Source of the DNA: Myxococcota bacterium
Lineage (GTDB): Bacteria > Myxococcota_A > UBA9160 > UBA6930
Direction of reading: 5' to 3'
Assembly: GCA_965223705.1 (NCBI GenBank)
Contig: OZ245015.1
Span: forward strand, 1,632,001-1,696,000
DNA: 64,000 nucleotides
Shown: piece after piece, positions 35,988 through 55,521 of the stretch
Numbering within the stretch: position 1 is the first letter of the stretch
Layout of the letters: the number at the start of each line of letters is the position of its first letter
The notes under the pieces: generated by a model
Database searches by the model: none
Seen by the model: only the letters and a program-made list of their open reading frames with translations
Told to the model about the DNA's origin: nothing
Made by a program: the position numbers and the translations under genes

Positions 35988-36064
35988 GGGGCGGTAGTTC
36001 AATTGGTTAGAGCACTGGCCTGTCACGCCAGAAGTTGCGGGTTCGAGTCCCGTCCGCCCCGCCA
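35988..36064 (+). tRNA. tRNA-Asp(GTC)
   Basis: GGGGCGG/CCGCCCC acceptor stem, anticodon arm CTGGC-CTGTCAC-GCCAG, T-loop TTCGAGT, encoded CCA; 77 nt. Confidence 0.97.
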
Positions 36065-36067: not shown

Positions 36068-36125
36068 CCTTAGCAAATCCGGATAGTTAGAGTCGAACGC
36101 TAGCGCTCGCCGAAGACGCGGGGAC

Positions 36126-39100
36126 TCACATGAAGAGCCGGTAGTCGTAGGCCCTGGTGCCGAACCGCTCGAGCAAAGAACCGATACGCGCGATCTGCCC
36201 GGACGATTCCACGGTTGCGGGTAGCTTCGTATACAGGTCGAAGGTATTCCAGTTCATCTTCGAGAGCCCCAGGATCTCCGAGCACGCGAGGTTGAGGTCG
36301 GACTTGCCGGCATGCCTCTTCAGGACTAACGGGGCGGGGATCCGCCGCTTGCCCTGGTAGTACTTGAAGCGGGGGTTGAGGGCCGTCGCGACCCCATGCA
36401 CCCAGAGGAGAGCTGTGTGCCCGTCGAGTCGGACCACGCTCCCTCGATCGACCGGGAAGTTGTCTTCGTCGAACTGCCCTCCGGGCTTCGCGATCGACGA
36501 TACGTACCGAAGCGCGGGGTCAATGTTGATCTCCAGCATGTCAACTTCGTCGATCCCGCCGAGGCCCTCCATCAAACCGTCGCGCTCGTCGCGCTGGAAA
36601 GGACTCCGCTTGTGGAGCACCACGCGCTCGGGGAGCCGCATCCTCGCCTCGTAGAACAACTGGCGAATGGTCTCCCCGACACGGCGCGCGTCGTCCCGGG
36701 ACAGGAATGGGTTCCCGCCACGGAAGATCGGATCCTCGACCTTGGTGAGCCTATATTGCAACCCCTCTCCGCGGGAGTTGTAGATGTGACTGCAACCCAA
36801 GACGACGTGGCGGCCGCGCTCTGAGTTTTGATCGATGCTGTAGCCGAGCCCCACGAACGCCGTGTTGCTATCGAGGACGTCGAGGACCCAGGGCGTTCGC
36901 ATGCTCTTCACGTAGAGCGCGAGGGATAGCCACCACCAGACCCGACACTGCTGGGGCTCGCGCAGCGTGTGTCCCTCGAGGAACTGCGTCGTGATTCCCC
37001 GCGGAACACAATAGGCCTTCACGAAATCGTGGACGTCGAATCGCTCGCTTTCGGTCCTGAACCGCTTCCACTGGTCAAGGCGATCTGGGACGTACACGAG
37101 CACGACGCTGGGGTCTGACGACGCCTGGATCGCATCCAACGCCTGGGTGATGCTCCGCGCCAGCTCGACAGACCCGGTTCGGGGATGGGTGCCCTGTCCT
37201 GGGACCGAGTACGAGCGCCAGCCCGGCGACCCCGGAGTTGGGAGTTCCAGCGGGAGGCTGAACGCGGCGTCGAAGCCAGGGAAGTCGAGCAGGTAGTCGC
37301 GTTCGTTGCTGAGGGGTGTGTGCCGCCGGTGTGACCGCTGGACGAACTCACTCAGCACCTGCGTCTCCGGTTCCGGGCAGATGACACCCAGCCGAACGCT
37401 CGGGGCGAGGCCGCGCTCCGTGATCGAGTAGTCATACGGCCGATTCTGGGCGACTCCGCGGATCGGGTGGAAATCTCGCACCGCGGTGGTGCCATCCTTG
37501 CTGGCGAAGATGAGCTGGGGCTCCTCCAGCTCGAAGCCGTGGTGCGCGACATGCCGAGCGACACTTTCGGGGATCCGTGCGGCCCCGCCTCCGGAGCGAG
37601 CGAGCAGGGCCGCGAAGATTGGGGTGCGTCGGATCTCGAACGTGAAGGGCGTCTGAGAGCCGGTGGGGTAGTGAAACTTCCTGCGCTTGTCCGAAAACAG
37701 TCGGCGTCGCCACCCCTCTACTGCGCGATTGAACTTGTTGTTGTGCTGCCAGCCGAGCACCGCCATGCGGACTCGGCGCTCCACCTCCTCAGGAGCCTCG
37801 CTCCCGTCCGCGGCTTTCACGGTGACGGAAGGTTTGACGACGAGGTACTGCTTGCCCCCGATGCGCCTCAGGTAGAGCACCGCGGAATTGTGAACCGACC
37901 ACTCGCGCTCGCCCTCCCACCGCTTCTCCTGAGGAGCGGGGTCCCAGAGTCGGGCGCGTCCGTCGGTTTCGAGGCCCGCGGTGCTCGCGATCGACCTCGC
38001 GAGAGCCCGCCTAAGCAACGACACGATGGTGCCGGTCTCCAGCCGAAGGTCGCTCTCTCCGATCGGCGTCCGCTCCACCGAACCCTTGATGAGCCCGTCG
38101 AAGGCCGCGCGAATCGAGTCGACGTCTCCCATACACGCAATTCGCCCTCGGAACGGAATGGCGACCAGGTCGTGGCCCTCTGTCTTCCCTTCTACCCACG
38201 CCCACGCGCGCTCCTCCGGCCATTCCGTCGGTTCGAACTCGTAGACCTCCGACGGGCACCGGATCTCGAAGGCGTTGCTCTTGATCAGTGACCCCGCCCC
38301 CACTGGCTCGGCAGTGAAAGGCTCCCTCTCCTGCGCTTGCTCGATGGCTTCTACCGCCTTAACGCGGATTCCCTCGTTCGCTTCGCCATCCAGGCAGCGA
38401 AGCGCGAGGCGCGAGAGGAGATCGTCGAAGCCCTGCGTAGGAACTAGAAACGCGGAGCGCCCATTTCGACGAGCCGACTCGATCAGCTCCAGGACTCGCG
38501 GCGGGACATCTTCGTCTCCGTAGACGCACCAGTAGATGGCGCCGAGCCCAGGAGCGGAATAGGCCGCTTCGAGGGTGTCCATCACCGAGTCGTCGCGTCC
38601 GCTGTAGCCTGCGACGATGAGGGGCCGGTCCGTGATCCACTCCACGAGCGACGAGCGCAATTTCTCATCCTGGTGTTGAAGTTCTGATGGAGTGTTTCGA
38701 AGGTGGTCGTAGCGATAGTCGCCGTGGAGAGCGACACAAAGCAACTCCCCGGAGCGCACCCGACGCGGCAGTCGCCCGCGTGTGTCGAGCCCGACCTCGA
38801 TGGCAGAGAGGCTGAAGTCCGCGGCGGCTCGCACGGGGAGCTGGTCGAAGTTGGTACTCCACGCCGAGTCAACGATCCCAGCTTCTGCTAGCGCGCAGAG
38901 TGCCTTGTAACCGATGTGCGGGCGCGCCGGCTGTATCACCCTCTGGAACCAAGCGCGTCTGTCCTCGGTGACGGGGAAGCACTGCTCGATGTAGAACCCG
39001 TACTCCTCGGACGACTCCAGCACGGGGAACCCGCCGCGTCGATCCAGCCAGCGCTGGATCTCTTGGCGCACCGCGGGCAGCGAGAGCTCGGAGAACTGCG

Positions 39101-39287
39101 CCTCGAGGCCAGGGTTGTTACTCAGGAAGATTTCTCGCTTCCACTCCCAGACGCAGCGGTCCGCGGACGGAACGCCCGAGGTGATGGAGGTTCCAGCACC
39201 GAGGAAGAACGCGTGAGGCGTGTCGCGGTTTACCGCGACGGAGCGAACGAGCGCGTCGAGCGAGAGCGAGATCGCAGGTTCGTCCAC
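36126..39287 (-). CDS. Fused SIR2-APAZ-short prokaryotic Argonaute (single-chain SPARSA type)
   Basis: SIR2 motifs FFLGAGTS, STNFD, LHGD and GYSGRD. MID motif HDFVKA...TQ...LYVK..PW. The PIWI domain lacks the catalytic Asp residues (FVGLGYS, VLHKRS). GTG at 39287 has an AGGAGG RBS. Confidence 0.9.
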   Translation of the reverse strand: MDEPAISLSLDALVRSVAVNRDTPHAFFLGAGTSITSGVPSADRCVWEWKREIFLSNNPGLEAQFSELSLPAVRQEIQRWLDRRGGFPVLESSEEYGFYIEQCFPVTEDRRAWFQRVIQPARPHIGYKALCALAEAGIVDSAWSTNFDQLPVRAAADFSLSAIEVGLDTRGRLPRRVRSGELLCVALHGDYRYDHLRNTPSELQHQDEKLRSSLVEWITDRPLIVAGYSGRDDSVMDTLEAAYSAPGLGAIYWCVYGDEDVPPRVLELIESARRNGRSAFLVPTQGFDDLLSRLALRCLDGEANEGIRVKAVEAIEQAQEREPFTAEPVGAGSLIKSNAFEIRCPSEVYEFEPTEWPEERAWAWVEGKTEGHDLVAIPFRGRIACMGDVDSIRAAFDGLIKGSVERTPIGESDLRLETGTIVSLLRRALARSIASTAGLETDGRARLWDPAPQEKRWEGEREWSVHNSAVLYLRRIGGKQYLVVKPSVTVKAADGSEAPEEVERRVRMAVLGWQHNNKFNRAVEGWRRRLFSDKRRKFHYPTGSQTPFTFEIRRTPIFAALLARSGGGAARIPESVARHVAHHGFELEEPQLIFASKDGTTAVRDFHPIRGVAQNRPYDYSITERGLAPSVRLGVICPEPETQVLSEFVQRSHRRHTPLSNERDYLLDFPGFDAAFSLPLELPTPGSPGWRSYSVPGQGTHPRTGSVELARSITQALDAIQASSDPSVVLVYVPDRLDQWKRFRTESERFDVHDFVKAYCVPRGITTQFLEGHTLREPQQCRVWWWLSLALYVKSMRTPWVLDVLDSNTAFVGLGYSIDQNSERGRHVVLGCSHIYNSRGEGLQYRLTKVEDPIFRGGNPFLSRDDARRVGETIRQLFYEARMRLPERVVLHKRSPFQRDERDGLMEGLGGIDEVDMLEINIDPALRYVSSIAKPGGQFDEDNFPVDRGSVVRLDGHTALLWVHGVATALNPRFKYYQGKRRIPAPLVLKRHAGKSDLNLACSEILGLSKMNWNTFDLYTKLPATVESSGQIARIGSLLERFGTRAYDYRLFM

Positions 39288-39483
39288 GGATCGAATCCTC
39301 CTGACCACCGGCGACGGGTGCCGGCACGGTTTGGAGTTCTAGGCTCGGAGGACGACCCGAGGGGGGAGTTCAGGCCAAACAGCTAGTCTACCGAACGGGG
39401 TACGCCGACGACATCCAGCCTCCCGCGAGGTGCGTCGCAGGCACCCCCGGTCGTCCCTGTATCGTCCTTCCTAACACGAGCAA

Positions 39484-41034
39484 TTACTCCGCCCCAACGT
39501 CGTCAAGTAGGCGGTGCAGATCGCGCACCTTTTCGGTGAGCGTCTCGATCTGATCGCCGAAGGCCTTGCGCATGATCTCGGCTCTCTTGAGGATCTTCTC
39601 GCTGCCGCTCTTGATCGTTTCCGCTGAGCGGGTCACCTCGTCGAGGCCGCGCGCCTGCTTCTCGATCTCAAGGATGGCGCGCTCGATCGCATCGAAGTCG
39701 GCCGCTTCGGCATCGCTGCGCGCACGTCCGCGTGCGCAGAGCGCCCGCGCTACCGACACGCCAGCGACGAGGACCACGTCGCTTCGGGTATCCTCAGCAT
39801 CCCACACCAGAACGACATCGTTCCCGTAGCGTCCGAGAGGCTCGAGACCTTCAGGAGCACTACACGCCGAGAAGACGAAGAGCCCGACCGTCGCATCGCG
39901 GTTCTTGCGCGCTTCCTCAGCCTCAGCGAGAGCCTTCTGGAGGGTGTACGACGCGTCCTCCTTTGCTTCGGTTACGATCCGCGCCCCGGCCGCAGCGTGC
40001 TCGGGGCCGAGCTCGATAACTGCGTCTCCCTTCTTGCAGTTTTTGATTCGACCGGTGGTGTTGCCGGTGGGCGTGGCGATATCACCTGCTCTCTGGCTGA
40101 GGCTGTTGAGCTGCTCGAACACCGCATGTTCGAAGTCGTCGCCATGGCGCGTCGAGCGCGCGGCCTCCTGCTTTCGCGCGACCATCTCCGCGAGCTTCCC
40201 TAGCACCTCGCCGTGGAAACGCTCGTTCGCCTGCCGCTGGGTATCGATCACCTCGAGAAGCTCACGCTTCATGCGCGCGAGCGCGGAGCCCTCGTCGTCG
40301 AGGGAGAACTCGCTGCTGATTTGGTGCTGCGCCTGCTCGACGCGGCCCACCAGGCGCGAGAGTGCTGAGTCTTCTCGATCGAGCGAGAACTCAGCCATCA
40401 CCTCGCCGATCCGTTTTTCGAGCGCCTCGCTCACCTCGCCGTGGTGCTCAGCTAGCTCCACGACGAGGCGAGAGAGGGCGCCCTCCTTGTTGTCGAGGGA
40501 AAACTCGGAGAGGATCCGCTCGCGCTGCTCGCCCAGCGTCTTCTCCACGGAGACGGCCAGCGATCCGACGAGCCCCTCGGAAGCCTCGGGATCGAGGAGC
40601 TGCATGAGGGGGCTGTGTTCGCCCAAGTGGCCCGCGAGGGTCTGGGCCAGCTCCGATCCTTCGCTGCCGATCTGGCTGCGCAGCAGCCGCTCGAGCTCAC
40701 CGTCCCGCCGGATCAGGCGCTCGACCCGTTCGTTGAATCGGCCGCTTTTAGGATCGAAGTACCCCTTGAGGCAGGTCCCGATCTGCTCTGCGACGGTACG
40801 CTGGTGATGAGACAGCGCCTGGCCAAGGTTCTCGAGTAGGCGATCGCCTTCGGCGCGCACGCGCTCGGCGTCGATTCGGCCTTGCGCCTGGGTAAGCGCG
40901 AGCGCCCCGATCTTCATCGAGGCGATAGCGAAGTCGTGGCGCTCGCGGCCATCCGGATGGGGCTCGAGGGCGGCGCACAGGTCGCGGTCGGAGACGATGA
41001 GCTGGAGCTCGATGCTGTCGATATGGGCGCTCAT
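39484..41034 (-). CDS. Coiled-coil protein with internal repeats and a C-terminal PD-(D/E)xK-like nuclease domain (RmuC/DUF2130-like)
   Basis: HGDDFE...KGDAVI...IVTEAK motif and three EFSLD...ALSRL-type repeats. AAAGGA RBS before the ATG at 41034. Confidence 0.65.
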   Translation of the reverse strand: MSAHIDSIELQLIVSDRDLCAALEPHPDGRERHDFAIASMKIGALALTQAQGRIDAERVRAEGDRLLENLGQALSHHQRTVAEQIGTCLKGYFDPKSGRFNERVERLIRRDGELERLLRSQIGSEGSELAQTLAGHLGEHSPLMQLLDPEASEGLVGSLAVSVEKTLGEQRERILSEFSLDNKEGALSRLVVELAEHHGEVSEALEKRIGEVMAEFSLDREDSALSRLVGRVEQAQHQISSEFSLDDEGSALARMKRELLEVIDTQRQANERFHGEVLGKLAEMVARKQEAARSTRHGDDFEHAVFEQLNSLSQRAGDIATPTGNTTGRIKNCKKGDAVIELGPEHAAAGARIVTEAKEDASYTLQKALAEAEEARKNRDATVGLFVFSACSAPEGLEPLGRYGNDVVLVWDAEDTRSDVVLVAGVSVARALCARGRARSDAEAADFDAIERAILEIEKQARGLDEVTRSAETIKSGSEKILKRAEIMRKAFGDQIETLTEKVRDLHRLLDDVGAE

Positions 41035-41067
41035 GGTGGTGTCCTTTCTCGTTCTCGCCCGAGAATT

Positions 41068-41083
41068 TGCAATGCCTGTGCCA
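41068..41083 (-). promoter_or_regulatory. Sigma54 -24/-12 promoter
   Basis: TGGCAC-AGGCA-TTGCA matches TGGCAC-N5-TTGCW exactly and lies 33 bp upstream of the 41034 ATG. Confidence 0.85.
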
Positions 41084-41471
41084 CCCAACGCGCCTGTCCG
41101 GAGCGTAGAGAAAATCGCTTTTAATATGGTTAGTTATGAGATTGCCGGATCCTCGCGGCCACTCAAACTATCGACCCGGTCACCCGATATCTTGTTGGAT
41201 AAATAAGATTTCTTATGAAATAGATATCGTCGCAGTCGTCGGCGACAGTCACGCGCGTCCCCAGCCAGCTTCGCGCCCCGGCTGCCCAAGCGACGGAGCA
41301 GTCCGAACGAGTCGGAACGACGATCTCGTACTTGGGCCGGGGGCGCGCGTGGCCCGAGGGTCGGTCTGTCGATGCCCTGGTCGTACCTTCGATGAGGCCA
41401 GAGTCGAATGGGGATCTCAATGACCTCGGCTAGCGGAGAAACCGCATAGCGAGGGCGGACATTGGCATCGG

Positions 41472-42368
41472 CTAGATGGCCTTGGTGATACGGAACCCGT
41501 CCGCGAACCGGAGCGCCGTTCCCTCACGCACGTCACGCAGGCGACGAGTCCAGATTTCATCCTCGAGTATCCGGATATCCGTCGTCGAGCCCCGCTCCTC
41601 GCTGAGGCCATAGTCAATCGCGATTCCCCCACGTTCCGTCAGGATATACCGAGCGTGGGCTCGTTCCCCTCGCGGCAGGCGATCCCAGCGCAGAATCTCT
41701 AGCTCGATCGACCCAGGCAGAACCGAAAGAAGGGCCTCTTCGCAGTCTTGCCGGAACTCTTCCTTGAGCCTGCGATCTGCCCTCGTGTGGAACTGGCAGA
41801 CCGTTAGATCTGCAGCCCGTGGCTCTACGATCCCCAGCAGGGCACAGAGAACTGCTACCCGGTCTGGAGCTTGGGGCTCAAAATACGGATCCACGAAATA
41901 GAGCTCGCGGCTGACTCGAAGTAGGCCCCCAGCACACTGAGCGATCGCCCTGGCCTCTCGCGGGACGACTGCGCCACGATCGACCTTCCAACGCCCATCC
42001 TCTGGATGCCAGTCGTCGGTGAGAACGCGACGAGAGCCAGCTGGGTTCGTGCTAGCGATGATCGCTCTGAAGGGCTGGCGCTTGTCCTCAGCAATGGCGT
42101 TACTGATCCACTCCTCTTCTTCGGACCACCGTTGACATGGGCGATCGACGAGCAGCGAACTAATGCGCTTCGCAATTTCTACCGCCCGTATCCGATCGAG
42201 CTCGCTCAGCCTGCTCAGATGCGGCTTGACGCATTCCTTCCAGTCATCGGGGAATCGCGCCACGAAACGACCGGCATCGGGACCAAAGGCGTCCCAGAAG
42301 TACCGGAACTCCTTTGGGTGCGACCAAACGGCCATCAGTTCAGGCTCGACTGCAAACTCGGAGTGCAT
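41472..42368 (-). CDS. Hypothetical protein with a C-terminal PLD-like (HxR) motif
   Basis: 298 aa with FVDPYF and HARYILTERGGIAIDYGL. Starts 3 nt after the ATPase stop. Confidence 0.65.
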   Translation of the reverse strand: MHSEFAVEPELMAVWSHPKEFRYFWDAFGPDAGRFVARFPDDWKECVKPHLSRLSELDRIRAVEIAKRISSLLVDRPCQRWSEEEEWISNAIAEDKRQPFRAIIASTNPAGSRRVLTDDWHPEDGRWKVDRGAVVPREARAIAQCAGGLLRVSRELYFVDPYFEPQAPDRVAVLCALLGIVEPRAADLTVCQFHTRADRRLKEEFRQDCEEALLSVLPGSIELEILRWDRLPRGERAHARYILTERGGIAIDYGLSEERGSTTDIRILEDEIWTRRLRDVREGTALRFADGFRITKAI

Positions 42369-42371
42369 TGC

Positions 42372-43943
42372 TCAGAAGAGTTCCTTAACCCGCTCTTCGA
42401 AGAACCCTTGCGGCCAGCGATCGACGAATTCGCCGCGATCGCTGATGGCCAATGGCGTCACCCGGACCTCTCCCTCCTCCTGCTCTACAAATAAAACGGA
42501 AAGCTGATTCGCAGCCAGGCGGGGCCGACCCGGCTCGACCTCGCCCCGATGCGTCTCTTGGATTCTTCTTAGCAGTCGAAGCATCAAGTGCTCACTGTGC
42601 GTTTCAAGGATGCAAATGCCGCTTCGTGCCGTTGCTCTCCACGCGAACAAGTCCCCGAGCTCCACCTGAACGCTCGGATGAACGTGGAGTTCCGGCTGCT
42701 CTATCGCGATCACACGCGGGGAGGCTTCTCCGTCAGAATCAGTCGCTGCGACAATCACTGGAACAACCTGCGAAATTCCGATTCCAACATCCGTCGGAGC
42801 AACAGGCAACTGCCGCTCGAGATCAACCACAACGACGCGCCTGTGGGTAGGCAACCGATTCAGCGCTTCAGAGATCGCCTCAGCGTCATCGATCAGAGCA
42901 CGTGATCGAAGCGATGCCATAAGGAAGCTCTCGAGAGGGAGCTCTTTATACTCTTCAATTCGAACAGCGCTACCCGAGCCGATCCGATCCAGCCATCGGT
43001 TCACCTGCAAGACAAAAGTGTCGTCGGCTCCGATGAGCCGGTCCCAGGCAGCGAGTCCGGTGGACCACCTTGATATATCCGGCGTTAGCGGTGCTGAGTA
43101 TCCCCTCGGCGGCGTCTCGCGGATCGGCCCCAGGTACCGCAGCGAGGCCAGCTCCGAACGCAACATCCCGCCGAGGCCTGCGAAGAACGCCGTCAAGCGA
43201 TAGATCAGGCTCCCGCCTCTGTACGGCTCAACTACTTCAACTCCGTCGAAGTCCAGCCAAAGAGCATCATCCCAAAGGGGAACCGCAGACGAGTGCATCT
43301 CGGGACATTCGAACCGGTCAAACTCGGCGAGGTCATCATAGAACTCCTGAATGGCCTCATCAGTCTCCTCTGAACGAGAGTTTCCTACGACTCGATTCCA
43401 GTTGTACCGGAGAAGAGGATGCGAGAAGTTCAGGCCGCACAGATCGACCCTTTGTCCGTCTGCTGCGACACGTAGTTCGCCTACTGATTCACCGTTTACC
43501 TCGAGTGCAAATCCGGTGACTGTCGATCGCTCCAACCGGTCGTGCCAACCGATCGTCAGCTCTACACAGAACTCCTGGACCTGCTTGTAGAGCTCATTGT
43601 TGTAGTCTCGAAGCTCGACCCACCGATGAGGCTCGCGGGTTCGTTCAGGAATGTCATTGCCCTGCGGATCGACACAGAAGCGGATCACTACGTCCCGCTC
43701 CTCCTTCTCCCTCAGATGGACAAGACTCTCGAAACCTCCAAGATCCACAAAGGGGCCACCGACCTCAGTTGTGTCTGGATCAGAATTCCGATGCTCTAGA
43801 ATCTCTCGCGCGTAGTGCAGTGAGTGGAGCACCGAGCTCTTGCCGGCGCTGTTGGGGCCGAAGAGAAGCGTTAGCGGCTTGAGGTCGACGCGCGTCCGGC
43901 TCCCTACGCCCTTGAAATTCTCAATCTCAACCGCAACAAGCAT
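42372..43943 (-). CDS. ABC-type/AAA_21 ATPase with DUF3696-like C-terminus
   Basis: IENFK, Walker A GPNSAGKS, VGIGISQ signature, IEQPELHVHP, ETHSEH and WPQGFF. Confidence 0.88.
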   Translation of the reverse strand: MLVAVEIENFKGVGSRTRVDLKPLTLLFGPNSAGKSSVLHSLHYAREILEHRNSDPDTTEVGGPFVDLGGFESLVHLREKEERDVVIRFCVDPQGNDIPERTREPHRWVELRDYNNELYKQVQEFCVELTIGWHDRLERSTVTGFALEVNGESVGELRVAADGQRVDLCGLNFSHPLLRYNWNRVVGNSRSEETDEAIQEFYDDLAEFDRFECPEMHSSAVPLWDDALWLDFDGVEVVEPYRGGSLIYRLTAFFAGLGGMLRSELASLRYLGPIRETPPRGYSAPLTPDISRWSTGLAAWDRLIGADDTFVLQVNRWLDRIGSGSAVRIEEYKELPLESFLMASLRSRALIDDAEAISEALNRLPTHRRVVVVDLERQLPVAPTDVGIGISQVVPVIVAATDSDGEASPRVIAIEQPELHVHPSVQVELGDLFAWRATARSGICILETHSEHLMLRLLRRIQETHRGEVEPGRPRLAANQLSVLFVEQEEGEVRVTPLAISDRGEFVDRWPQGFFEERVKELF

Positions 43944-45127
43944 CAGAGCTTGTCCCGGAAGGCACGTTGAGAGAGACTTTCGAAGAGAGGTTCTTGGGCC
44001 GAATCCCGCAGCTGAGCTTCCAACGCCCGAACGGTTTCGATAGAACGACAGAACTGCTCCTGAACCTCTAACGGCGGAAGAACTATCGGTGTTCCTCGCA
44101 GCGAAGCGAGATCCAGACGCTTTGTGCCGTGAGCTGCAGTAGAGATGCGCGCCAGCAGGAACCCCGACATTGCCCTAAGCGTCCAGAGCAGAAACTCTGG
44201 CATTGCTCGATCGGATGGACGCACCGCCTTTAGATCCTGGTTGATCGTCAGGGGCGCACAAGACAAGGCAACTGGCATCGTATGCGCCAAGATCATCCCC
44301 CGGACAACAATCAGCACTGCACCGGGCGCAACAATTTGCACTCGTCCCTGGGCAACGGCCGCCTCACTGATATGGTCCTGCGCATCCTCCAGGTAGGCGC
44401 ACTTCATATCCTTTGGCGACACCCACGGAATCCGCCCACCCCAGAAACTCGGCTCCTGTTTCGATGGCGTAGCCCCGCTCGATATGCTGGTCTCATCTCC
44501 GATCGTTGAAGCTGGCCAGCCTCGATCGTTAGTCACAGGATCACCGAACAGCTCAGAGTAAATTGCGAGCGGGAGGTCTTCGCTGAGAGCGATGGCTTCG
44601 TGGTGTTTCCGGCGGATCGCATCAGCCTTATCAAGAAGAGACACAATCCGGTCCTGCTCCGGTCTTGGCGGCACTGGGACTTCGGTGCTGGCCACGCTCC
44701 TCGTGTTGAGGGTCATTCGCGTCGAACCTTTTGTCTGAGCTAACGAAGCTCGCTGACCGTCGGCCGAGTTGAGATAGCGGGCCAGGAACTCCGGAGTTAC
44801 GTCTCGAAGGCCCTTGATCGCTATCAGGCCAGCGCAGTTGGCTTGGCCAAGGTCTTCCGGGATCACAGCGGCGGTCCCCGACTTGCCGATCCTCACGACC
44901 ACTACGTCACCCGGGGATAGTTGAGATTTTCGCTCTGAAGCGTGGAATTCCCGCGAGACGAACTCCAAGTCCTCTAGCTCGAGCCCATTGGCCCTCACGT
45001 TCTTCCCCATCAGGAACGGGATCCCTTCGGGAACTCGATGCTCTTTGCTCGGGCCGACATGGCCTACGACCACTCGATCGCAAATATCAGCGATCTGCGC
45101 CGTCCGCCACGATTCGGGGGCCCTCAC
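43943..45127 (-). CDS. hsdS: Type I R-M specificity subunit
   Basis: Two TRDs separated by conserved helical regions ([33 protein letters not shown]). Confidence 0.93.
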
Positions 45128-46704
45128 GATCCAGTCTCGCTGTTCTTCGAGAGGAGTTCCCGGAGGCTATCGAGTTCACGAACGATGCCCGACTCCAGCG
45201 CGCGGATCTTACCGATGATCTGAATCGGAGTTTCGTAGTCCGGCTCTTCATAGACCGTCTCCCTGTATCGCGCGACGGAAAGATCGAAATCGTTCTTAGC
45301 GATCGTCGATCGATCAACAAAGAACGCCTTACCAGTGCGATCCGTATCCTTCTTTGGGTCGCGCTCGATCCAACGCTGGAGGCAATCCGGCAGGTCGTTT
45401 GCGTTGACAGGCTCCCGCTTGTCATCCAAAGAACGGCCATCAGCCTCCAAGTCATAGAAGAAGACATCGGCAGTCTTGCCGCCGCGCGTAAAAACCAAGA
45501 TCGCCGTCGACACACCGGCATAGGGCCTGAAGACGCCGGACGGGAGTGAGACCACCGCCTCGAGCTGATTCTCCTCAACTAGCAGCTTTCGGATTGCAAG
45601 ATGCGCCTTTGAGCTACCGAACAGGACCCCATCCGGCACCACCACGGCTGCGCGCCCACCGGGGTCTTTCAACATGCGGAGCGTAAGCGCCAGAAAGAGG
45701 AGCTCAGTCTTCTTCGTCTTGACCTTGCCAGTAAGGGTCGGATCAACATCCTCCGCGTCGAGGCTGCCCTTGAAGGGTGGGTTGGCCAGAATCACGTCAA
45801 AGTGATCGTCTGCGAGCTCCGGTCGATTCTCGCGGAAACCGCGACTAAGCGTATCCTGGTAGTAGATATGGGGATTCGAGACATCATGGAGCATCAGGTT
45901 CATCGCCGCGATGCGCAGCATGGTTACGTCGAAGTCGAAGCCGTAGAACATCCCCTTCTGGATGTGGTCACGGTAGGGCTCGAGGAGATCGCCCGTGTAC
46001 ACCATCTGAGGTTCGCCGTCGTCACCAAGAACAGACTCCCCCTCCTCATCCTCAGCTGGGAACTGGCCCTCCTCTGACGAGTAGTTTCTCAGTAGGTACT
46101 GCATCGTCTGGACAAGGAAACCGGCTGTTCCCGCCGCGGGATCGCCTACTATCTCGGTAGGCTTCGGATCCACCAGCGACACCATCAAGTCGATGATGTG
46201 TCGGGGGGTCCGAAACTGGCCGTTGATGCCCGCTGTTGTGAGCTTGCTGAGAAGGTACTCGTAGAGGTCGCCCTTTGTGTCGCCCTCCCCTAGCGGCAGC
46301 TCGTCGATCAGCTTGATGGCCGCGTAAAGCAGGCTCGGCTTCGAGATGATGAGCTGGGCGTCCTTCATGTACTCGCCGAGGCGATTCTGTTTCTCCGCGA
46401 CGGCCCGGATGTGCGGGAAGAGCTCGTCGCGGACGACGGCGAGCATGCGCTCGGCGTCCCCGTCGTGCTTGAGCTTTGACCAGCGCAGGCGCTGAGTGTC
46501 CGGGCCGAAGAGATGGCCGGGGAACGGTTCGCCTCGGTTCTTGCGCGTGAAGACTCGCTCGTCGCGCGTCTCCCGGATGTCGAGCAGGCGGGCGAACATC
46601 AGGAAGGAGATCTGCTCAATGACCGTGAGCGGGTTGGTGATGCCCCCCGTCCAGAACTGCTCCCAGAGTTTGTCGATCTGACTGCGTAGCTTGCCGGTGA
46701 TCAT
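45124..46704 (-). CDS. hsdM: Type I R-M N6-adenine methyltransferase
   Basis: [24 protein letters not shown] and VPDGVLFG. Confidence 0.96.
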
Positions 46705-49700
46705 GAGTACATGCCCTCGGGACCGGGTTCGGTCGGGGTGGGTTCGGGGTTCGCGCCGGGCTCCGGGCTCTCGAAGCTGGCGATGAGACCGAGCAGCTGG
46801 TCGATCTGGGCCTCGTCGCCGAAGAGCCCGTCGATTCCGTCGGGGTCGAGCGACGTGAACGGCGGCTCGTAGAGCCGCTCGAGCTCGATCGCCCCCGCGC
46901 TCGCGATAAGGCTCTTGAGCAAGCTCAGGAAGCGCACTTGCCGGGCATTCAGCGCAGGGTGCTGATGGACAAAGGCTTCGAAGCGCTTCTCGACAGCCTC
47001 ACCGTCGAGCCCAATCACGCGGCGAATCGCCAGATCGAGGTGCCCTGCGGTCTTCGGGTAAAGCTGCTCGAGCTTGGCGAGGTCGACGTCGGGGTTCTGG
47101 GTGAGGACGAGGCTCACGAGTTCGTCCAGGTCCTGCCGGCCGACGGGGCGGCCGGCCTTGATCTTCCGCAACGTCTCGTTGCTGGCCAGAAGGTCGCGCA
47201 GTACCTGTTCGACCCGCTTGCGCCAGCCCACCAGGTCGAGGCCCTCTATCTTGACTGTGTGCTCGCCCTCGCGCACGAGCATCGGGTCTTCGGCCACGTC
47301 TACCACGTGGGCATAATCGGCGGGGCTGACCAGGCGCTCGCGGTACTTCATGATGGCCCGCAGCTCGCGCCGGACTTCCTCGAGCGCCGCGAAGTTCGGA
47401 GCGTCCCAGAATTCGACACCTTTCACCTGTGCGATCGCATCTGCCTTGGCCTTGACCTGGGCGAGGTTCATCTTGAGCTGGGAGAGGGCATTCAGAAGGT
47501 CGCCCTTCAGATCCTGAAATTCGCTCGCCTCAGCGATTCGAGCCCGCTGGAGGCGGGTCATCAAGAGATCGAACTCGTGGGCTTCCACATGGCCGCGGAT
47601 GTCCCGCTCCTTCATGAGGGGCGCTACCTCTTGGAGCAGGGCCGCCTTGGTGGCCGGGTCGAACTGCTTCAGGATCTGGGTGTCGCCCACTTTCTTCAGC
47701 GTCCGCCAGGCGTCACGCACGGCGATCGTCCCTGAGTCCTCGAGACTTGCTATGTCCTGCCGTAGCAGTTCAACCACCAACTCGAATGTAGGTAGCTCGG
47801 GTTTACGGAGCGCGGCTTCGGCGAGCTCCACGCGGTTCTCAAACAGCTGATGGAGGAGCGACTTGCGAGGCGAGGGCGTTGGTTCGACGTAGGTCTGGCC
47901 GAAGAACTCGAAGTTGCCCCAGTGATCGAAGACCAGAAACTCCTTCTTGTGCTCGCCGTAGCCAAAGAGATTCTCGCACTTGCGAGTGCCGCGACCGATC
48001 ATCTGCCAGAACTTGACATAGGACTTCACGGGTTTGGCGAACACAAGGTTTACGACCTCCGGGACGTCGATGCCTGTGTCGAGCATGTCGACCGAGATGG
48101 CGATCTGGATGTCGTTGTGCTGGCCCTGTCCCTTGAAATCGTCAATTAGTTGCTCTGCACGCGGATCGTAGTTGTCGATGACCGTGCAGAAGCTGCCTCC
48201 GTAGTGCGGGTAGAGTTCGTCGAAAAGCTCCTTCAGAAGGACGGCGTGGCGGTGGCTGCGCGCGAAGACGATCGACTTCCCTGGCACCTGGCCGCTTACG
48301 TCGCGGATGCCGTTATTGATCAGGTTGCGCAGCATCTCGCGGTTCGTGTCCTTGTTGAAGATGAAGCGGTCGAGTTCGGCGGCCTCGTAGTCAAAGCTCT
48401 CAGCATTCGAAATCTGTTTTTCGAGCTGTGCCCGCTGCGCCTCATTCATCTGTGCCCACTTCATTCCCTTGCGCTGGAAGCCGGTTTGAAATGTGCGAAC
48501 GTGAAGCGGGACGAGGACCCCGTCATCAATGGCGCGGTCCAACGGATACGAGGCCGTCGGGTCTTGGTCCTCGCAGCCGAAGAGATCGTAGGTGTTGCGA
48601 TCGATGAAGCGCACCGGCGTCGCCGTGAGCCCGACTTGGAGCGCGTCGAAGTAGTCGAAGAGATCCTTGTAGCGGTTGTAGATGCTGCGGTGAGATTCGT
48701 CCGCGATCACCAGATCGAAAAAGCCCACGTCGAAGCTCTCGAAGCAACTCTTCATCGCCGGATAGGTGGCGAAGTAGATTTGGTGCTCCCGCTCCTGGGC
48801 AGTTTTGGCCGTCACCGCAACTCGCTTGGCGTTCGGGAGGAGCTGCTTGAAGGCGTTCAATGCCTGCTTGCGGAGCTCGCGCCGGTCGCATAGGAAGAGA
48901 ATGCGTTTAGCGCGATTGGCTCGAAGGAGCACGTCAGCGAGCGAGATGGCCACTCGGGTCTTGCCAGTGCCCGTTGCCTGGACGATCAGCGCCTTCCGGC
49001 GCCCCTGGTCGAAGCGCTCGCCCACACGCTTCACGGCCTCCACCTGGTAGAGGCGGCCGGCGATCTCGTCGCTGATCGGCACTTCCTCGAGTCGGGCCCG
49101 CTCGCCGCGCTGGAAGTGGAGATAGGCGAGGCTGTCCTTTGAGTAGAAGCCGTACAGCTTGCGATCGACCTCGTTCTGGGCGTCATCCCAGAGGTAGAGG
49201 TCGAAGCCGTTGGTGTAGAAGATGACCGGGCGCTGTCCGTACATCCGCTCGAGGCCGTCGGCGTAGAGCCGGGCTTGGTACCGGCCCTGGACGGCCTCGA
49301 TTGAGGTCTTTTTTACCTCAACGACAGCCAGCGGCTTTTCCGCATCGTCCCAGAGCACATAGTCCGCCCGACCCTTGCCGCTCTCCGTCGGCTGGTAGTC
49401 GACCTCGACCTCTTGGCCCACCTGGGCCGTGTTCTTACCCGCTTCCCCAACCACCCATCCAGCGGAAACCAGCATGGTTTCGACGAGGAACTTCCTGGTG
49501 TCGGACTCATTAAAGGAGAGCTCGCTCGCGGCCCGCTGACCGGACTCGACAATGATCTGAAGCTCTTGTGCGGTCTTCTCTGCGTCCTCGGCCTTCGCAC
49601 GCGCAGCGTCCAGCTCCGTCAGGATTCTCTCCATCTGCGCTTCCTGGGCGGCGAGCTTCTCAAGCGCAGCCGTTTTCTCTCGCTTAAGCTCGGCCTTGGT

Positions 49701-50207
49701 CACGCCAGCCGCGCCCCCCGACGGGGGCAGTGTGAACTTCGGGCAATCGCTCTGCGCACCCTTGTCCACCGCCATGTGGAGCCAGCTGCCGAGGTGATAG
49801 ACCTCGCTTAGCGCCCGGCGCGCCATATCGAAGTTGACGGCGCCGCCGTGGGCCGCCTTGTTCCCAAGTTTCCGGACAGCGTGAATCTTGGTCAGCACCA
49901 CCTGGGGCACCGAGTCCTTGAAGGGCTGACCGTCGAGGAGCGTGAAGAAGTCAGCGTCATAGGGCTGAGAGAGACCCAGCACCACGTAGAGGTCGTTCGT
50001 CATCGCCTCTGCGAAAGTGCGGAGCTTGATCAGCGCGCTCGCCGGGTCGGGGTGCAGGTATTGCTCGGCGAAGCCACCGAGATCAGCCAGGTAGGTGCGC
50101 TTGTTGCGGAGGAACTCGAAATTGACGGATTTCACCACGGCGGCTTTCTCCCGGAGATCCGCGAGGTCCCCAAACGGGCCAGCTGTGTGCGTTTCCTCGG
50201 CTGACAT
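46701..50207 (-). CDS. hsdR: Type I restriction subunit (N-terminal DUF4145-like domain, EcoEI-type C-terminus)
   Basis: Nuclease motif ADYVL...[35 protein letters not shown] and [11 protein letters not shown] at 50207 has a GGGAGAG RBS. Confidence 0.95.
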
Positions 50208-50258
50208 TTGCACTCTCCCACAGCGCATGGAGCCATACCCCCGTCGGTCGAGTGTTTG

Positions 50259-50274
50259 AGCAAGGCGCGTGCCA
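50259..50274 (-). promoter_or_regulatory. Sigma54 -24/-12 promoter upstream of hsdR
   Basis: TGGCAC-GCGCC-TTGCT matches the consensus exactly and immediately follows the stop codon of the enhancer-binding-protein gene. Confidence 0.85.
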
Positions 50275-51798
50275 TCATCGCGTCCCGGCTTTCTTGGGGG
50301 CGTTAACGCCGTATTTTCCCATCCAGTTCGTGAGGGTTTGGTAGCTAGGCAGCCCTACCAGCTCGGCCGCCTTCGTCTTATTCCCATCAGCCTCGCCGAG
50401 GGCCCGCTCAAGGTAGTGCTTGGCCAATTCTGCCATCAAATCAGGTAGTTGCAGCTCTTTTCCAAGCGGGCGACCGAGAAGGTCCGTAGTCTTGCCCTGA
50501 ATCGGTTGGAGGAGCTCCTCGCGGACGTCCTCCACCCCAATTTTGGCACCGGGCGTCCAGAGCACGAGCCGATCCATGGTGGCCTGCATCTCGCGGACGT
50601 TCCCAGACCATTCGTGTCGAAGCAGAAGATTTCTTGCTTGAGGAGAAAGGGTCTTCTGCTCAAAAGTGGGTTGGTCGGCAAACTTCTCGTTGGCAGCGGC
50701 AAGAAAGTGGTCGAGGAGTGGAGTTAGGTCGCCCTGACGCTCCCGCAGAGGGGGCAATCGGATGACGCCGGACGCCAGCCGGAAGTAGAGGTCCTCCCGG
50801 AAGGTGCCCCCTGCCACTTCAGCCCTCAGCTTGCGGTTGGTGGCGGCGATGATTCGAACGTCAACCTTCACGGGGTTACTGCCGCCAACTCGCCGGATCT
50901 CCCGTTCCTGGAGTGCACGCAGGATCTTCGCCTGGGCCGCGAGCGGGAGCTCGCCGATCTCGTCCAGAAATAGTGTCCCGCCAGCCGCGGCCTCGAAGTG
51001 ACCAACGTGGCGTTTGTCGGCGCCGGAGAACGCGCCTTTCTCGTGACCGAACAGTAGAGACTCGACTAGGCCCTCTGGCAGCGCCCCACAGTTCACGTCT
51101 TCGAATGGCTTCTCAGAGCGGCGGCTGGCCGCGTGGATTGCCCGAGCGAAAAGTTCCTTGCCCGTGCCCGATTCACCCTCGATGAGGACGGTCGTATCGT
51201 GAGGCGCGACTCGTCGGGCTCGAGCAATCGCGCGGCTGAGCGCCGGACTGCGTCCGACGATCTGGGCGAACTCGGGGGCCTCTGGGGGTAGGCCCGCGGT
51301 CAGGCGTTCGAGTTTCTCGTCCGTGCGGCGAAGGGCGCGCGGAACGTACTCGGCTGCGAGGTCGAACGGGAATGCGACGCCGCGCACGCCACGCTCAACG
51401 CTCGACTGGATCAGCTCCGCAGGGAATCGCGTCTTCGCGAGCAGAATCCAAGCCGCCTGCATCGACGGGGTGCCCGGGCTGATGTGGGCCGCTAAGTCTG
51501 CTTCTTTACCGAACTCCGCGTGTGTGAACTCGATCGCCCGCTCTACGGCCGCGACGATCTCGTGGAAGTCCGTCGGGTCGTCGAGTGTTTCGATTCTCAG
51601 GTGGATCGGAGACCCGCCCCGATCTTCCAGCCATTCTGAGTACTCGCGACTCTCGCCCTCGTCGTAGTTCGACAAGAGGACAACTGCATCGAAGGTTCGA
51701 GCGTCGAGTACGCTCGCCGTCGGGCCCGCGCCCGGCCTCTTGCCCGTGGAGCAGTCGAGATCGGTCCGGCCGAGCCATGCGAGGAGGATCTTCGGCAC
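50275..51798 (-). CDS. RtcR-like sigma54 enhancer-binding protein (putative CARF sensor, AAA+, Fis-type HTH)
   Basis: GESGTGKE, GAFSGA loop, LFLDEIGE, FREDLYFRL, WSGNVRE and C-terminal HTH. The N-terminal DDPTDF...HISPGTP...WILL resembles the RtcR sensor domain. GTG at 51798 is the likely start. Confidence 0.88.
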   Translation of the reverse strand: MPKILLAWLGRTDLDCSTGKRPGAGPTASVLDARTFDAVVLLSNYDEGESREYSEWLEDRGGSPIHLRIETLDDPTDFHEIVAAVERAIEFTHAEFGKEADLAAHISPGTPSMQAAWILLAKTRFPAELIQSSVERGVRGVAFPFDLAAEYVPRALRRTDEKLERLTAGLPPEAPEFAQIVGRSPALSRAIARARRVAPHDTTVLIEGESGTGKELFARAIHAASRRSEKPFEDVNCGALPEGLVESLLFGHEKGAFSGADKRHVGHFEAAAGGTLFLDEIGELPLAAQAKILRALQEREIRRVGGSNPVKVDVRIIAATNRKLRAEVAGGTFREDLYFRLASGVIRLPPLRERQGDLTPLLDHFLAAANEKFADQPTFEQKTLSPQARNLLLRHEWSGNVREMQATMDRLVLWTPGAKIGVEDVREELLQPIQGKTTDLLGRPLGKELQLPDLMAELAKHYLERALGEADGNKTKAAELVGLPSYQTLTNWMGKYGVNAPKKAGTR

Positions 51799-52181
51799 AG
51801 TCGAAGCATAAGAAAATTTGCGCTCGGCTCCACTTTCGTACCTCAACCAGCAGGGCCGGCACGAGCCGGGCTGGCAACACGCAAGAATGGCGCGCTGCGC
51901 TTGGTCAACACGAGCCCGGCCCTCCCGGGAGAGCGACGCGGGTACGCGCCTCTCGGTAGTTCGCGAGACCGCCTCGCCCCGAGCATGGAAGCCGGATCTT
52001 CCCAGCTCCAGCAGCGACGACCTCGTCCCTGGGACTGTACTTGCCGCCTGTTTTCAATCCGTTGCGAACTCTGACGACAATCGCGATTTCCACGACATGA
52101 ATGGTGAGAATCCGGCAAGGGTTTCGCACCGGTGGCGATTCTCTTGGCTGGGAGACGCCGCAGGCGGGACACTCAGGCCGA

Positions 52182-52855
52182 ATGCCGCTCCGAAACATCT
52201 TCGATCAATACGACCAGAACGAAAACCGCCTTACGCACGCGCTGTGCTGTGCTCTTGTTGAGGACGACAGCTCCTTCGCGCGTTTCTGCTGGACTTCGCA
52301 GATCGAAGGGTGTCAACGCGCGTCGATCTCGAAGTCGAAGAGCAGTCAATCCCTGGGGAGGTCGCGCCACCGGGTGACGAAGAAGATCAGCGGCGCGGCC
52401 TACCCGACGCTTGGATCCACTCGAACCATGACTGGGCCGTGCTCGTAGAGAGTAAGGTCACCGCACCCGTCGAGGTCGATCAACTTCGACATCACCACAA
52501 CATGGCTCGCCGTCAGGCTACCAAGAGGGCACCTGGTGCCGCACCTTGGTTTATCGGACTACAGCGTCGCTATCCAAGCCAGCACTCTGTCCCAATCGTC
52601 GACGCACGGTTTGAATTCGATCTGCGAACGCTGGTCCGCGATCATGAGAGTTCCGTCAAGACCCAGCCGATCTTTCTTCAGGCCGCCTACTCGGCAATAC
52701 AGAATCGCGCACCGAACTTTCAGGCTGGGGTCGGACTCAAATTGTCTTATCGATACTGCCCAGCCACATCCTCGCCCGAAGCGTTAGGGCTCGTTGCGGA
52801 TGCTTGGCTCGCATGTAGGCCACTCATCGATCTGCTCCTGAACCCTGAGAAGTAG
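52182..52855 (+). pseudogene. Frameshifted PD-(D/E)xK nuclease-like gene
   Basis: MPLRNIFDQY..ENRLTHAL in one frame continues as EEQ...GLPDAWI...LVESK in another frame. The switch is at ~52270-52320. Confidence 0.65.
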
Positions 52856-52864
52856 GATTTGCGT

Positions 52865-53644
52865 ATGGAAGCGATTGGACTCGATGTTGGCTTCTCTGCT
52901 ACCCGACCCAGTTCTGGGGTCGCGCGATTCTCTTCCGACGGGATCCTGCGAGTAGGTCATGCGACTTCCGACTGGGCAAGCCGCAGCGCAGTCGCCGGTG
53001 AGGAGGCCGTACAGGTTGCAGCGATTGACGCCCCTTACACGAGAATCGCAGAAAGTGAGCCTCGGGCATGCGAGCGAGTCTTTACGCTCGGGCCCTTCGG
53101 CGGCCGATGCAAACCCGGATTGTCCCATGTCCCCGGCACGGGACGCGAACTCCGAAGAGCAGGGTGGGAGACCGCGCAACAGCTCAAGCCACTCGCGCCA
53201 AGCGAGCCTCTTCGTGTTCAGTTTCCACGTATCGAAGACTGCAACGTTGTGGAGGCGTTTCCGAACGCGTATCTCGGAGTGTGCGTGCCGTCCAGTATCT
53301 ATGACACGAAGCCGCCGCTACGACGGGGGAAGAAGTTCGACTGGCTCTACGAACGATGGGTTGACTCGGGACTCTTCCATCGAGCTGCTCGGGAAGCGGG
53401 ATTGCCTGATAGCGTGGCTGAGCTGTGCGATTCGAACACTCAACACGACGAGCGCGCCGCGCTCGTTTGTTTGCTGACCGCGAGTGGTGTTTTCCTCGGT
53501 CGCTACACCGCTGTCGGAGACCCCGCCGGTGGGTACTTCTTTCTACCAGCGTTCGAACTCTGGGCCGACTGGGCGAGAGAAGCGATCGAACGTCAGAGCG
53601 TTCGCGTGCCCGAAATCGAAGTTTGGAAAGACGGCACGCGATAA
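52865..53644 (+). CDS. DUF429-like predicted RNase H-fold nuclease
   Basis: IGLDVGFS, AAIDAP, R.CER and VVEAFP motifs. Confidence 0.75.
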   Translation: MEAIGLDVGFSATRPSSGVARFSSDGILRVGHATSDWASRSAVAGEEAVQVAAIDAPYTRIAESEPRACERVFTLGPFGGRCKPGLSHVPGTGRELRRAGWETAQQLKPLAPSEPLRVQFPRIEDCNVVEAFPNAYLGVCVPSSIYDTKPPLRRGKKFDWLYERWVDSGLFHRAAREAGLPDSVAELCDSNTQHDERAALVCLLTASGVFLGRYTAVGDPAGGYFFLPAFELWADWAREAIERQSVRVPEIEVWKDGTR

Positions 53645-53780
53645 ACGCTGACGAGCGACCGGGAGCGGGCCGCGTGCTGAGGAAGCTACTCAGGTGCCAG
53701 CGAGCGGACGGCTATCGACACGGTCCAAAGCCTAGGAGCACCTGTACACTCGCACCTTCGCAAACGCGTCGATGGAGACG

Positions 53781-54008
53781 TTAGATGACCTCTGGAGACT
53801 TTCCAACGTAGACCGTCCCGGGTTTTATCTCTTGAAAGCAACCAAGCTCATACAGCGCTGAGGATTGGCAACCTCGGACACGAAACTCTTGTTGCCCCGA
53901 ATGCTGCATCTCGCACTTGCGCATAGCCACCTCGACCATGGCGCTCGTCGTGCCCACTTTGCAGACGAGGCCGATAGCCAGGGCTCCTAGCAAGGCGTGC
54001 TTTCCCAT
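53781..54008 (-). CDS. Possible small Cys-containing secreted protein
   Basis: MGKHALLGALAIGLVC signal-like start, 75 aa, no recognisable family. Confidence 0.3.
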   Translation of the reverse strand: MGKHALLGALAIGLVCKVGTTSAMVEVAMRKCEMQHSGQQEFRVRGCQSSALYELGCFQEIKPGTVYVGKSPEVI

Positions 54009-54139
54009 AGCTAGTGATACGACGGCCACGCCAAGGTGGACGACCGATGCATCAAGATGACCGGACCCGGCGTCGACATCGCGACGTGTCGACAAGCCCT
54101 CTCCAATCCACTGTCGCGTTGCGGGCGTAGAGAAGAGGT

Positions 54140-55036: not shown

Positions 55037-55066
55037 AGACACGAAGGCGGGACGATCGGTCGATTG

Positions 55067-55521
55067 CTAGTCCTGCAAGAACGAGGCAAGGCACGGATGG
55101 CTGGTGAGGGCGGACGCAACTGAGATCGGTGTATAGACCTCGTAGGTCCCCTGCGATGCGGACATTTGAACTCGGAGCTGCTCGTCGCCGAGTTCGTAAA
55201 CCTGGGTGACGAAAGTTCCTGCTTCTTCTGAGCGAAACTCGATCGTAAGGACTGCTCCGTCACGATTGGTCACTTCGAACTCCGAAATTGGGGAACACCG
55301 CCCCTCGAAAACGCCGATCGCTTCTCCCCCCGGAATACTTGGATCATATGTCCGAAGAGGTTGGGGTCGGCGACGATCTCCCACTGCTCGTCGGAATACT
55401 CAACCTGCTCGCTGAGACCCGACAAGGTCAGGGCTCGGTTCGATCTCCAGACGCCTTCCAATTCGGTTTTGGACTGAGAGCACGCGAGGAGGGAGGCCGC
55501 GAGAATTACTAGCCACCGCAT
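55067..55521 (-). pseudogene. Lipoprotein gene split by a frameshift in a G6 tract
   Basis: Lipobox LLAC in ORF 55270-55521. Adding one G at 55326-55331 joins it to the ORF ending at 55067. Confidence 0.55.

Follow-up and report, generated by a model that had tools for sequence, protein, structure and literature searches.

A CARF-domain sigma-54 activator as the candidate inducible switch of a defence island in a Myxococcota bacterium

Restriction-modification (R-M) systems are usually treated as constitutive, and signalling through CARF domains is known mostly as a means of controlling effector enzymes. Could a CARF domain instead place a set of defence genes, type I restriction included, under inducible transcription? 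The question is raised by a stretch of 64,000 nucleotides (the window) from a Myxococcota bacterium (assembly GCA_965223705.1, contig OZ245015.1, positions 1,632,001 to 1,696,000). In this stretch the gene of a predicted bacterial enhancer-binding protein (bEBP) is followed by seven co-oriented genes: hsdR, hsdM, hsdS, a DUF3696 ATPase gene, the genes of a 298- and a 516-amino-acid protein, and a SIR2-Argonaute gene. A first-pass annotation, made from the DNA letters alone, had listed these seven genes, pointed to two exact sigma-54 promoter sites among them, and proposed that an RtcR-like activator transcribes them only on a nucleotide or RNA-damage alarm. The gene order and both sites were recovered in our analysis. 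We consider it quite probable that a CARF-gated activator drives the two sigma-54 promoters, from one candidate enhancer inside its own gene and one between genes, and that it provides an inducible boost over a basal level. Sequence analysis shows the CARF fold, the presence of rpoN and both promoters; it also shows that promoter 1 and the intragenic motif are conserved and that the motif is confined to the two promoters.

The activator is a member of the catalogued RtcR_PspF2 family, with the architecture CARF-AAA+-helix-turn-helix (HTH). It matches the PADLOC profile RtcR_PspF2 (PDLC01995) at 627 bits, with residues 19-514 of the 523-amino-acid open reading frame (ORF) aligned to profile positions 2-480 of 481. 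Its score against NCBIfam RNA_repair_RtcR is 348 bits, under the cut-off of 650, and by that criterion it is not RtcR proper. The suggestion that its N-terminal domain is CARF-like held up: CARF hidden Markov models (HMMs) match at residues 20-150, and modelled residues 1-146 resemble the CARF domain of Csm6 with a Z score of 17.5 (rmsd 2.2, 140 aligned). The model also matches Can2 (Z 14.2-14.3), and no RtcR structure was among the matches listed. With the CARF domain of Escherichia coli RtcR the identity is about 30% over 98 columns (hhalign probability 96.6, E 5e-10). When the whole activator was searched with Foldseek, only AAA+ domains came back, and a profile search of the PDB with the CARF alignment gave nothing significant (Csm6 at E 0.14). 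The central domain matches Sigma54_activat (E 7.5e-69) and carries the Walker A, Walker B, arginine-finger and sensor II motifs.

Both promoter candidates are exact copies of TGGCAC-N5-TTGCW. The site of promoter 1 begins at the first base past the stop codon of the activator, and that of promoter 2 stands 34 bases upstream of the probable ATG of the gene for the 516-amino-acid protein. As the start of that gene is most likely ATG 41034, and not TTG 41088, the promoter 2 site is intergenic. About 0.02 such sites are expected per 64-kb window. On the contig C1 (4.54 Mb), to which both sites belong, there are 18 copies of the pattern with the 5-base spacing, versus 0-4 with each of 15 other spacings, so that the organism uses a strict sigma-54 consensus; rpoN is present in the genome. 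Applied to E. coli, a sigma-54 matrix built from the 16 other exact sites of C1 gives the established rtcBA promoter 20.8 bits. A third sigma-54-like site, with one mismatch (53684-53699, minus strand, 15.3 bits), has a nearby enhancer score of -7.1 bits and is probably outside the regulon. We also observed two back-to-back exact sigma-54 sites on opposite strands on the 17-kb second contig, C2 (11447-11488), which also carries a bEBP gene.

To assess conservation, we collected 127 homologous loci by protein similarity and dropped 23 that were partial or cut, and the remaining 104 were reduced to 82 representatives under 80% identity. Left out were the plasmid match H7, five viral-contig loci, and two ordinary bEBPs without CARF, which were all that a scan of genome contigs with a single protein had returned. 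A distant DNA search of E. coli genomes likewise gave only ordinary bEBPs among the matches listed. With the matrix described above, a sigma-54 site of at least 8 bits was found within -60 to +100 of the activator stop codon in 64 of the 82 loci, compared to none on the reverse strand and one in a gene-internal window. The stop-codon promoter is present in named plasmids of Pseudomonas, Azotobacter, Vibrio and Rhodoferax. Culturable carriers include Azotobacter chroococcum NCIMB 8003, whose hsdM seems to be fragmented, and Rhodoferax antarcticus. The conservation of the -24/-12 site in homologous loci, a check proposed by the first-pass annotation, is thus confirmed for promoter 1. Neither a non-CARF sensor domain nor a lack of site conservation, the outcomes that would speak against the regulon at the sequence level, came to light.

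Where might the activator bind? In the relatives, a tandem palindrome, RYAAR-N4-YTTRY with a period of 20-21, lies just 5' of the activator start codon, with strong copies in 64 of 80. A motif matrix was trained on these upstream regions, with the window omitted, and used to scan C1. The two best matches on the whole contig were enhancer 2 (24.0 bits), which sits 98 bp above promoter 2, and enhancer 1 (20.9 bits), which sits 349 bp above promoter 1; the third match scored 12.5. With a background of genome composition the order was the same, and an AT-rich third match came close (31.0, 25.3 and 24.7 bits). The top two ranks were unchanged when the matrix was trained from random seeds on the 67 loci with less than 55% identity. 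Near the 16 other exact sigma-54 sites of C1 the motif reached at most 6.3 bits. The placing of ranks 1 and 2 at the two promoters indicates that one activator probably runs exactly two promoters, and we infer that the conserved tandem palindrome is its binding site at both. No CARF-like frame was found in 41084-41472, which lends no support to a derivation of enhancer 2 from a lost second activator gene. Between enhancer 2 and promoter 2 no convincing IHF site was found, the best candidate having 2 mismatches to the consensus used.

Enhancer 1 covers the codons of about residues 381-392, in the AAA+ lid. The motif is the best site of the activator gene, at the homologous place, in 68 of the 82 relatives, whereas none of the genome's 19 other bEBP genes exceeds -3.3 bits there. 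When codons were resampled from each gene's own usage, the mean score fell from the observed 15.9 bits to -1.9, with p of 0.05 or less in 68 of 82 genes. Rare codons are favoured at the motif: AGA stands at one position in 36 of 82 genes, versus 8% of Arg codons, and GCA is found in 61 of 82, versus 17%. The sequences thus point to a motif that is kept by codon choice, beyond what the protein sequence demands. Over the 82 loci, whose kin are not independent, 59 have both the intragenic enhancer and the promoter, 8 only the enhancer, 5 only the promoter and 10 neither, and the spacing between the two in the 59 loci is 324-373 bp. Intragenic sigma-54 promoters and activator sites are known from Myxococcus (PMC9765219).

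From these elements we propose the following model. The activator gene would be a portable switch cassette on a tRNA-Asp island. Its CARF domain would keep the activator off until a nucleotide- or RNA-end-type ligand appears, by analogy with E. coli RtcR, which is repressed by its CARF domain and constitutive without it (PMC9650030). The activator would bind the tandem palindrome in its own AAA+ lid codons and again above promoter 2; once liganded, it would oligomerise, loop to the sigma-54 polymerase and fire both promoters. Promoter 1 would then deliver hsdR-hsdM-hsdS together with a Menshen-like ATPase/PLD pair; the neighbours among these five genes either overlap or are separated by 3 bases. 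Promoter 2 would deliver the coiled-coil nuclease, with transcription perhaps continuing into the SIR2-Argonaute gene. A scan for terminators gave none on the minus strand between the activator and hsdR, and basal read-through from one into the other is consequently possible. Such read-through could keep the chromosome methylated, which would make induction a boost and not an on-switch. The likeliest output would be a strong inducible boost above a low read-through level, rather than silence before an alarm. What we say of the ligand, of basal read-through and of the extent of the transcripts is presumptive.

Several observations weigh against this proposal. The promoter at the activator stop codon is missing in 18 of the 82 relatives, and 14 of the 82 do not have the intragenic motif as their top match. 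A site of at least 8 bits near the stop codon is not specific to the family, since 4 of the 19 other bEBP genes of the genome also have one. The palindrome copies before the activator start overlap sigma-70-like -35/-10 boxes, so that part of the motif matrix may reflect sigma-70 binding, and the window's own-promoter operator has decayed to one half-site. The sigma-54-contacting loop reads GAFSGA and not GAFTGA, clade-wide (54 of 62 close homologues); this form is given as compatible with activity (PMC4641369), but PspF T86S binds one sigma-54 patch abnormally (PMC3467059). Finally, E. coli RtcR needs RtcAB (PMC9650030), and neither RtcA or RtcB nor Cas10 or SMODS turned up in the genome, which is 95% complete. 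The decayed operator, the GAFSGA loop and the missing terminator would suit an account in which the intragenic motif serves mainly as a roadblock for autorepression or reflects a constraint at the protein level, while read-through or sigma-70 promoters express the defence genes constitutively and the sigma-54 sites add little in this strain. We hold this to be very improbable: the constraint acts on codons beyond the protein sequence, the motif co-varies with the sigma-54 site at near-fixed spacing, the consensus is perfect at both promoters, and promoter 2 has an intergenic enhancer at textbook distance.

If the sigma-54 promoters are used, how tightly are they gated, and by what? At one extreme, a strict RNA-damage alarm would start restriction and methylation together on an unmethylated chromosome, making the island a device for suicide or dormancy. 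The homology of the sensor to the CARF domain of RtcR, which binds tRNA halves with cyclic phosphate ends (PMC7790460), and the tight coupling of the five genes fit this idea. So does a weak test with a sigma-70 matrix, in which no conserved internal sigma-70 promoter for hsdMS was detected: the score before hsdM beat both controls in 11 of 31 loci and was 0.0 in the window, which also weighs against basal expression. Yet with read-through possible, RtcA and RtcB not found, a sensor only about 30% identical to that of RtcR and an Argonaute that did not recur in related loci, strict gating seems unlikely to us. Neither the words "only on alarm" nor the RNA-damage signal of the first-pass annotation is supported on these grounds. 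It is distinctly more plausible, if somewhat short of an even chance, that the regulon is real and its signal is not an RNA end but a cyclic oligonucleotide made by a system elsewhere, a phage-made nucleotide, a DNA breakdown product of restriction or a protein partner. The best structural matches of the sensor are CARF domains that bind cyclic oligoadenylate, those of Csm6 and Can2; the commonest cargo of the related loci is DNA restriction; and phage-specific nucleotides are named as an option by Makarova et al. 2014 (PMC4012209). Against such a signal, searches of the genome found neither Cas10 nor a SMODS synthase, oligoadenylates do not activate RtcR (PMC9650030), and a shared fold gives no ligand. 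Our preferred reading, an inducible boost by the CARF-gated activator, leaves room for either class of ligand. The defence-regulon idea thus stands as regards the CARF sensor, the two promoters, the conservation of promoter 1 and a common candidate activator site, and lacks support as regards alarm-only expression, the RNA-damage signal and the membership of the Argonaute, to which we turn below. The sigma-54 feature itself is real, and comparative evidence supports the regulon well.

The first gene behind promoter 2 encodes the 516-amino-acid coiled-coil protein. No Pfam domain matches it, including the RmuC domain that marks the ShdA/RmuC coiled-coil nucleases, and neither does its profile match one RmuC protein that was compared. 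In its AlphaFold model, residues 297-431 resemble McrC (Z 10.5), PaqCI (Z 9.6) and Can2 (Z 9.4), scores that are middling, and Foldseek matches are weak (E of 0.003 or more). E302, D337, E356 and K358 are invariant in the family, and on the model the protein is predicted to carry a restriction-endonuclease-like (PD-(D/E)xK) fold. The nuclease family occurs in 7 of the 82 activator loci, always divergently upstream, and in 5 of the 7 a sigma-54 site scoring 9 bits or more lies no more than 130 bases from the start; the enhancer at the seven loci is the training operator, which makes the enhancer part of this comparison circular. At 10 nuclease loci without the activator in 1.5-kb flanks, the enhancer is absent from all 10 (at most -0.6 bits) and a sigma-54 site from 9, which suggests that the nuclease joins the regulon only where the activator is close by. 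Between the nuclease gene and that of the 298-amino-acid protein lie some 440 bp.

The case of the Argonaute is different. Its gene, which probably starts at GTG 39287 behind AGGAGG, encodes a protein that matches PADLOC pAgo at 1324 bits and SIR2_2; its halves match the SPARSA structures 8jkz_A and 8in8_C, and its TNFD and LHGD motifs align with a solved Sir2 subunit. Some 180-200 bp separate it from the nuclease gene upstream, its leader contains a weak sigma-70-like site, and it was found in none of the 82 homologous activator loci, so that position is the sole argument for the regulon membership that the first-pass annotation gave it. No fused SIR2-Argonaute homologue was found in 224 other genomes of the class, and plasmids gave matches to the PIWI half only. 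Menshen NsnC consists of an inactive PIN and an effector domain; for the 298-amino-acid protein, no HMM and no meaningful PDB or PADLOC profile match was obtained. Its H238 and R240 are invariant in 12 homologues, the Atlas leads to MIT_C clusters, and its features fit the description of PB-PLD1 in PMC12065111. NsnA (ParB-DUF262) had no match among ten proteins scanned against PADLOC, the gene upstream of the ATPase being hsdS.

All these genes lie in the left part of a 23-kb island integrated at tRNA-Asp, with 23-bp direct repeats at both edges. The frames of hsdR, hsdM and hsdS are all open, as expected of a type I R-M system; the start codon of hsdR is uncertain (50228, 50207 or about 50138). 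Contigs from public DNA runs match 36092-46920 and 46508-50962 without any difference, which gives no independent support because the runs may be the source sample. In the right half of the island (52310-57554), ORFs of 181, 260, 298, 159, 167 and 110 amino acids have no Pfam match. The 260-amino-acid ORF (52859-53644, plus strand) has a weak PADLOC match to PDC-S44 (E 2.6e-4) and seems to resemble a DUF429-type nuclease. Outside the island, at 27503-34685, motifs point to a cyclic-di-GMP signalling cluster made up of a GGDEF protein, an efflux-type adaptor, a hybrid histidine kinase and a REC-GGDEF-EAL protein.

Table 1. Position and strand, in window coordinates, of the features of the tRNA-Asp island (UAS, upstream activating sequence).
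Feature	Position	Strand	Remarks
attL = 3' end of tRNA-Asp (gene 35988-36064)	36042-36064	+	23-bp direct repeat with 59120-59142
Single-chain SIR2-APAZ-short Argonaute (fused SPARSA type), predicted NADase	36126-39287	-	ORF open to 39308
516-amino-acid coiled-coil protein, predicted central PD-(D/E)xK domain, first gene of promoter 2	39484-41034	-	
Sigma-54 -24/-12 promoter 2	41068-41083	-	exact consensus, 18.7 bits; predicted start about 41057
Candidate enhancer (UAS) 2, tandem palindromes 41182-41195 and 41203-41216	41182-41216	strand-neutral	contig rank 1
298-amino-acid Menshen NsnC-like protein, C-terminal PLD/MIT_C-type HxR motif	41472-42368	-	
Menshen NsnB-like ABC/OLD-type ATPase with DUF3696	42372-43943	-	PADLOC NsnB E 3.8e-42; Pfam AAA_15, AAA_21, DUF3696
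hsdS, type I specificity subunit	43943-45127	-	domain and PADLOC matches
hsdM, type I methyltransferase	45124-46704	-	domain and PADLOC matches
hsdR, type I restriction subunit, first gene of promoter 1	46701-50228	-	PADLOC REase_I 965 bits
Sigma-54 -24/-12 promoter 1	50259-50274	-	exact consensus; predicted start about 50248
Candidate enhancer (UAS) 1, within activator coding sequence	50624-50657	strand-neutral	contig rank 2
CARF-AAA+-HTH enhancer-binding protein, 507 amino acids, RtcR_PspF2 family	50275-51798	-	
Decayed operator, activator's own promoter	51808-51842		one half-site left, 51808-51821; 5.1 bits, genome rank 92
Tyrosine integrase of island	57622-58890	-	Phage_integrase E 3.3e-13
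attR, repeats tRNA-Asp 3' end	59120-59142	+	

How general is this arrangement? The activator family is not rare: in the window's phylum it was present in 19 of 401 genomes sampled, a count that includes the genome of the window, and in another phylum in 20 of 401. Relatives are also encoded on five IMG/VR viral contigs (L167-L171). In the 44 representatives with at least 5 kb downstream, the cargo includes hsdR in 30, the ATPase in 17 and the PLD-like gene in 12. In four relatives (L098, L107, L049 and L088) the Menshen-like pair directly follows the activator, and elsewhere the first gene encodes a vWA protein, BrxB, an SNF2 helicase or MoxR. The activator heads vWA modules and not R-M genes in L028, L030, L042 and L045 (vWA-PP2C-kinase in two annotated plasmids), a BrxB gene in L076 and a MoxR gene in L141. 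Second enhancer-plus-promoter modules are uncommon within the 9-15 kb covered: of 60 outlying sigma-54-like sites, 7, the window's included, had an enhancer of at least 10 bits. Two of these were unconvincing, and four precede other genes. The first, before DruH of Druantia type III, lies at about 25235 in L046 (the Pseudomonas luteola plasmid NZ_CP044084.1), 8.8 kb downstream of the activator; the other candidate second promoters precede the genes of an RmuC-family protein (L058:17778-18998), a helicase with a YgjP-like domain (L032:2573-4930) and a dynamin-like GTPase (L115:16586-17239).

It is tempting to extend the model to the whole family, and we do so tentatively, leaning towards doubt. 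RtcR_PspF2 genes might be a widespread, self-contained, ligand-gated switch, with an enhancer dual-coded in the AAA+ lid codons and a sigma-54 promoter at the gene end, which would make any defence cargo that follows it, be it type I R-M, BREX, a Menshen-like pair or a vWA-kinase module, inducible by infection. Further copies of the enhancer would recruit additional promoters, such as those of the coiled-coil nuclease and SIR2-Argonaute here and of Druantia III elsewhere, into one alarm regulon, and type I restriction would be essentially off before the CARF ligand arrives. A CARF-gated sigma-54 regulon in the window, if real, would put the transcription of restriction and abortive effectors under induction by infection. 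The exact positions of its promoters and enhancers make a published prediction, discussed below, directly testable, and they offer a read-out for finding the ligand.

The family and the regulon hypothesis are published predictions (2014 and 2024), and in this respect the idea of the first-pass annotation was not new. Our literature search, which was thin on subscription papers and did not extend to the supplements of PMC4012209 and PMC11090510, turned up neither an experimental test of the idea nor any account of these sites; the available text of papers on Geobacter RpoN and Burkholderia NtrC held nothing on the RtcR_PspF2 family. The cis-elements located here, above all the dual-coding enhancer, appear to be new to print. 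Among characterised systems, RtcR of E. coli and Salmonella (rtcBA) shares with the activator the CARF, AAA+ and HTH domains and a sigma-54 promoter, at 35% identity over 391 aligned columns. However, E. coli rtcR is divergent from its target, and both the intragenic motif (2.9 bits) and the stop-codon promoter (4.4 bits) are absent from it. The predicted targets of the activator are defence genes, with hsdRMS adjacent and no rtcA or rtcB in the island, unlike the divergent rtcBA of RtcR. The effectors have their own counterparts. PgSir2-Ago, a fused SPARSA (Zaremba et al., bioRxiv 10.1101/2021.12.14.472599), is likewise a single-chain SIR2-APAZ-short Argonaute; unlike it, as far as the available text goes, the Argonaute of the island sits behind a nuclease gene with a predicted sigma-54 promoter. 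Menshen NsnB-NsnC (PMC12065111) has the same succession of a DUF3696 ATPase and a partner with a MIT_C-like PLD motif, whereas here the pair is appended to hsdRMS, with no NsnA among the island genes scanned.

The closest precedents are the two predictions themselves. Makarova et al. 2014 (PMC4012209) linked RtcR-like proteins to R-M and predicted sigma-54 activation of downstream genes; the architecture, the R-M link and the predicted sigma-54 role with a phage-induced ligand are common to their regulators and ours. Their text, in the part available, names no promoter or binding site, whereas the stop-codon promoter, the tandem motif, its intragenic copy and the second promoter are located here. 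Bell et al. 2024 (PMC11090510) described RtcR-headed defence superoperons with CoCoNuTs and proposed their induction by cyclic-phosphate RNA through a UAS. In both cases an RtcR homologue heads co-oriented type I R-M and ancillary genes, in keeping with a layered response of restriction followed by abortive infection. The present island differs in having no McrBC/CoCoNuT. Moreover, Bell et al. expected internal promoters to be independent of RtcR, whereas the internal promoter found here bears the candidate enhancer of the activator.

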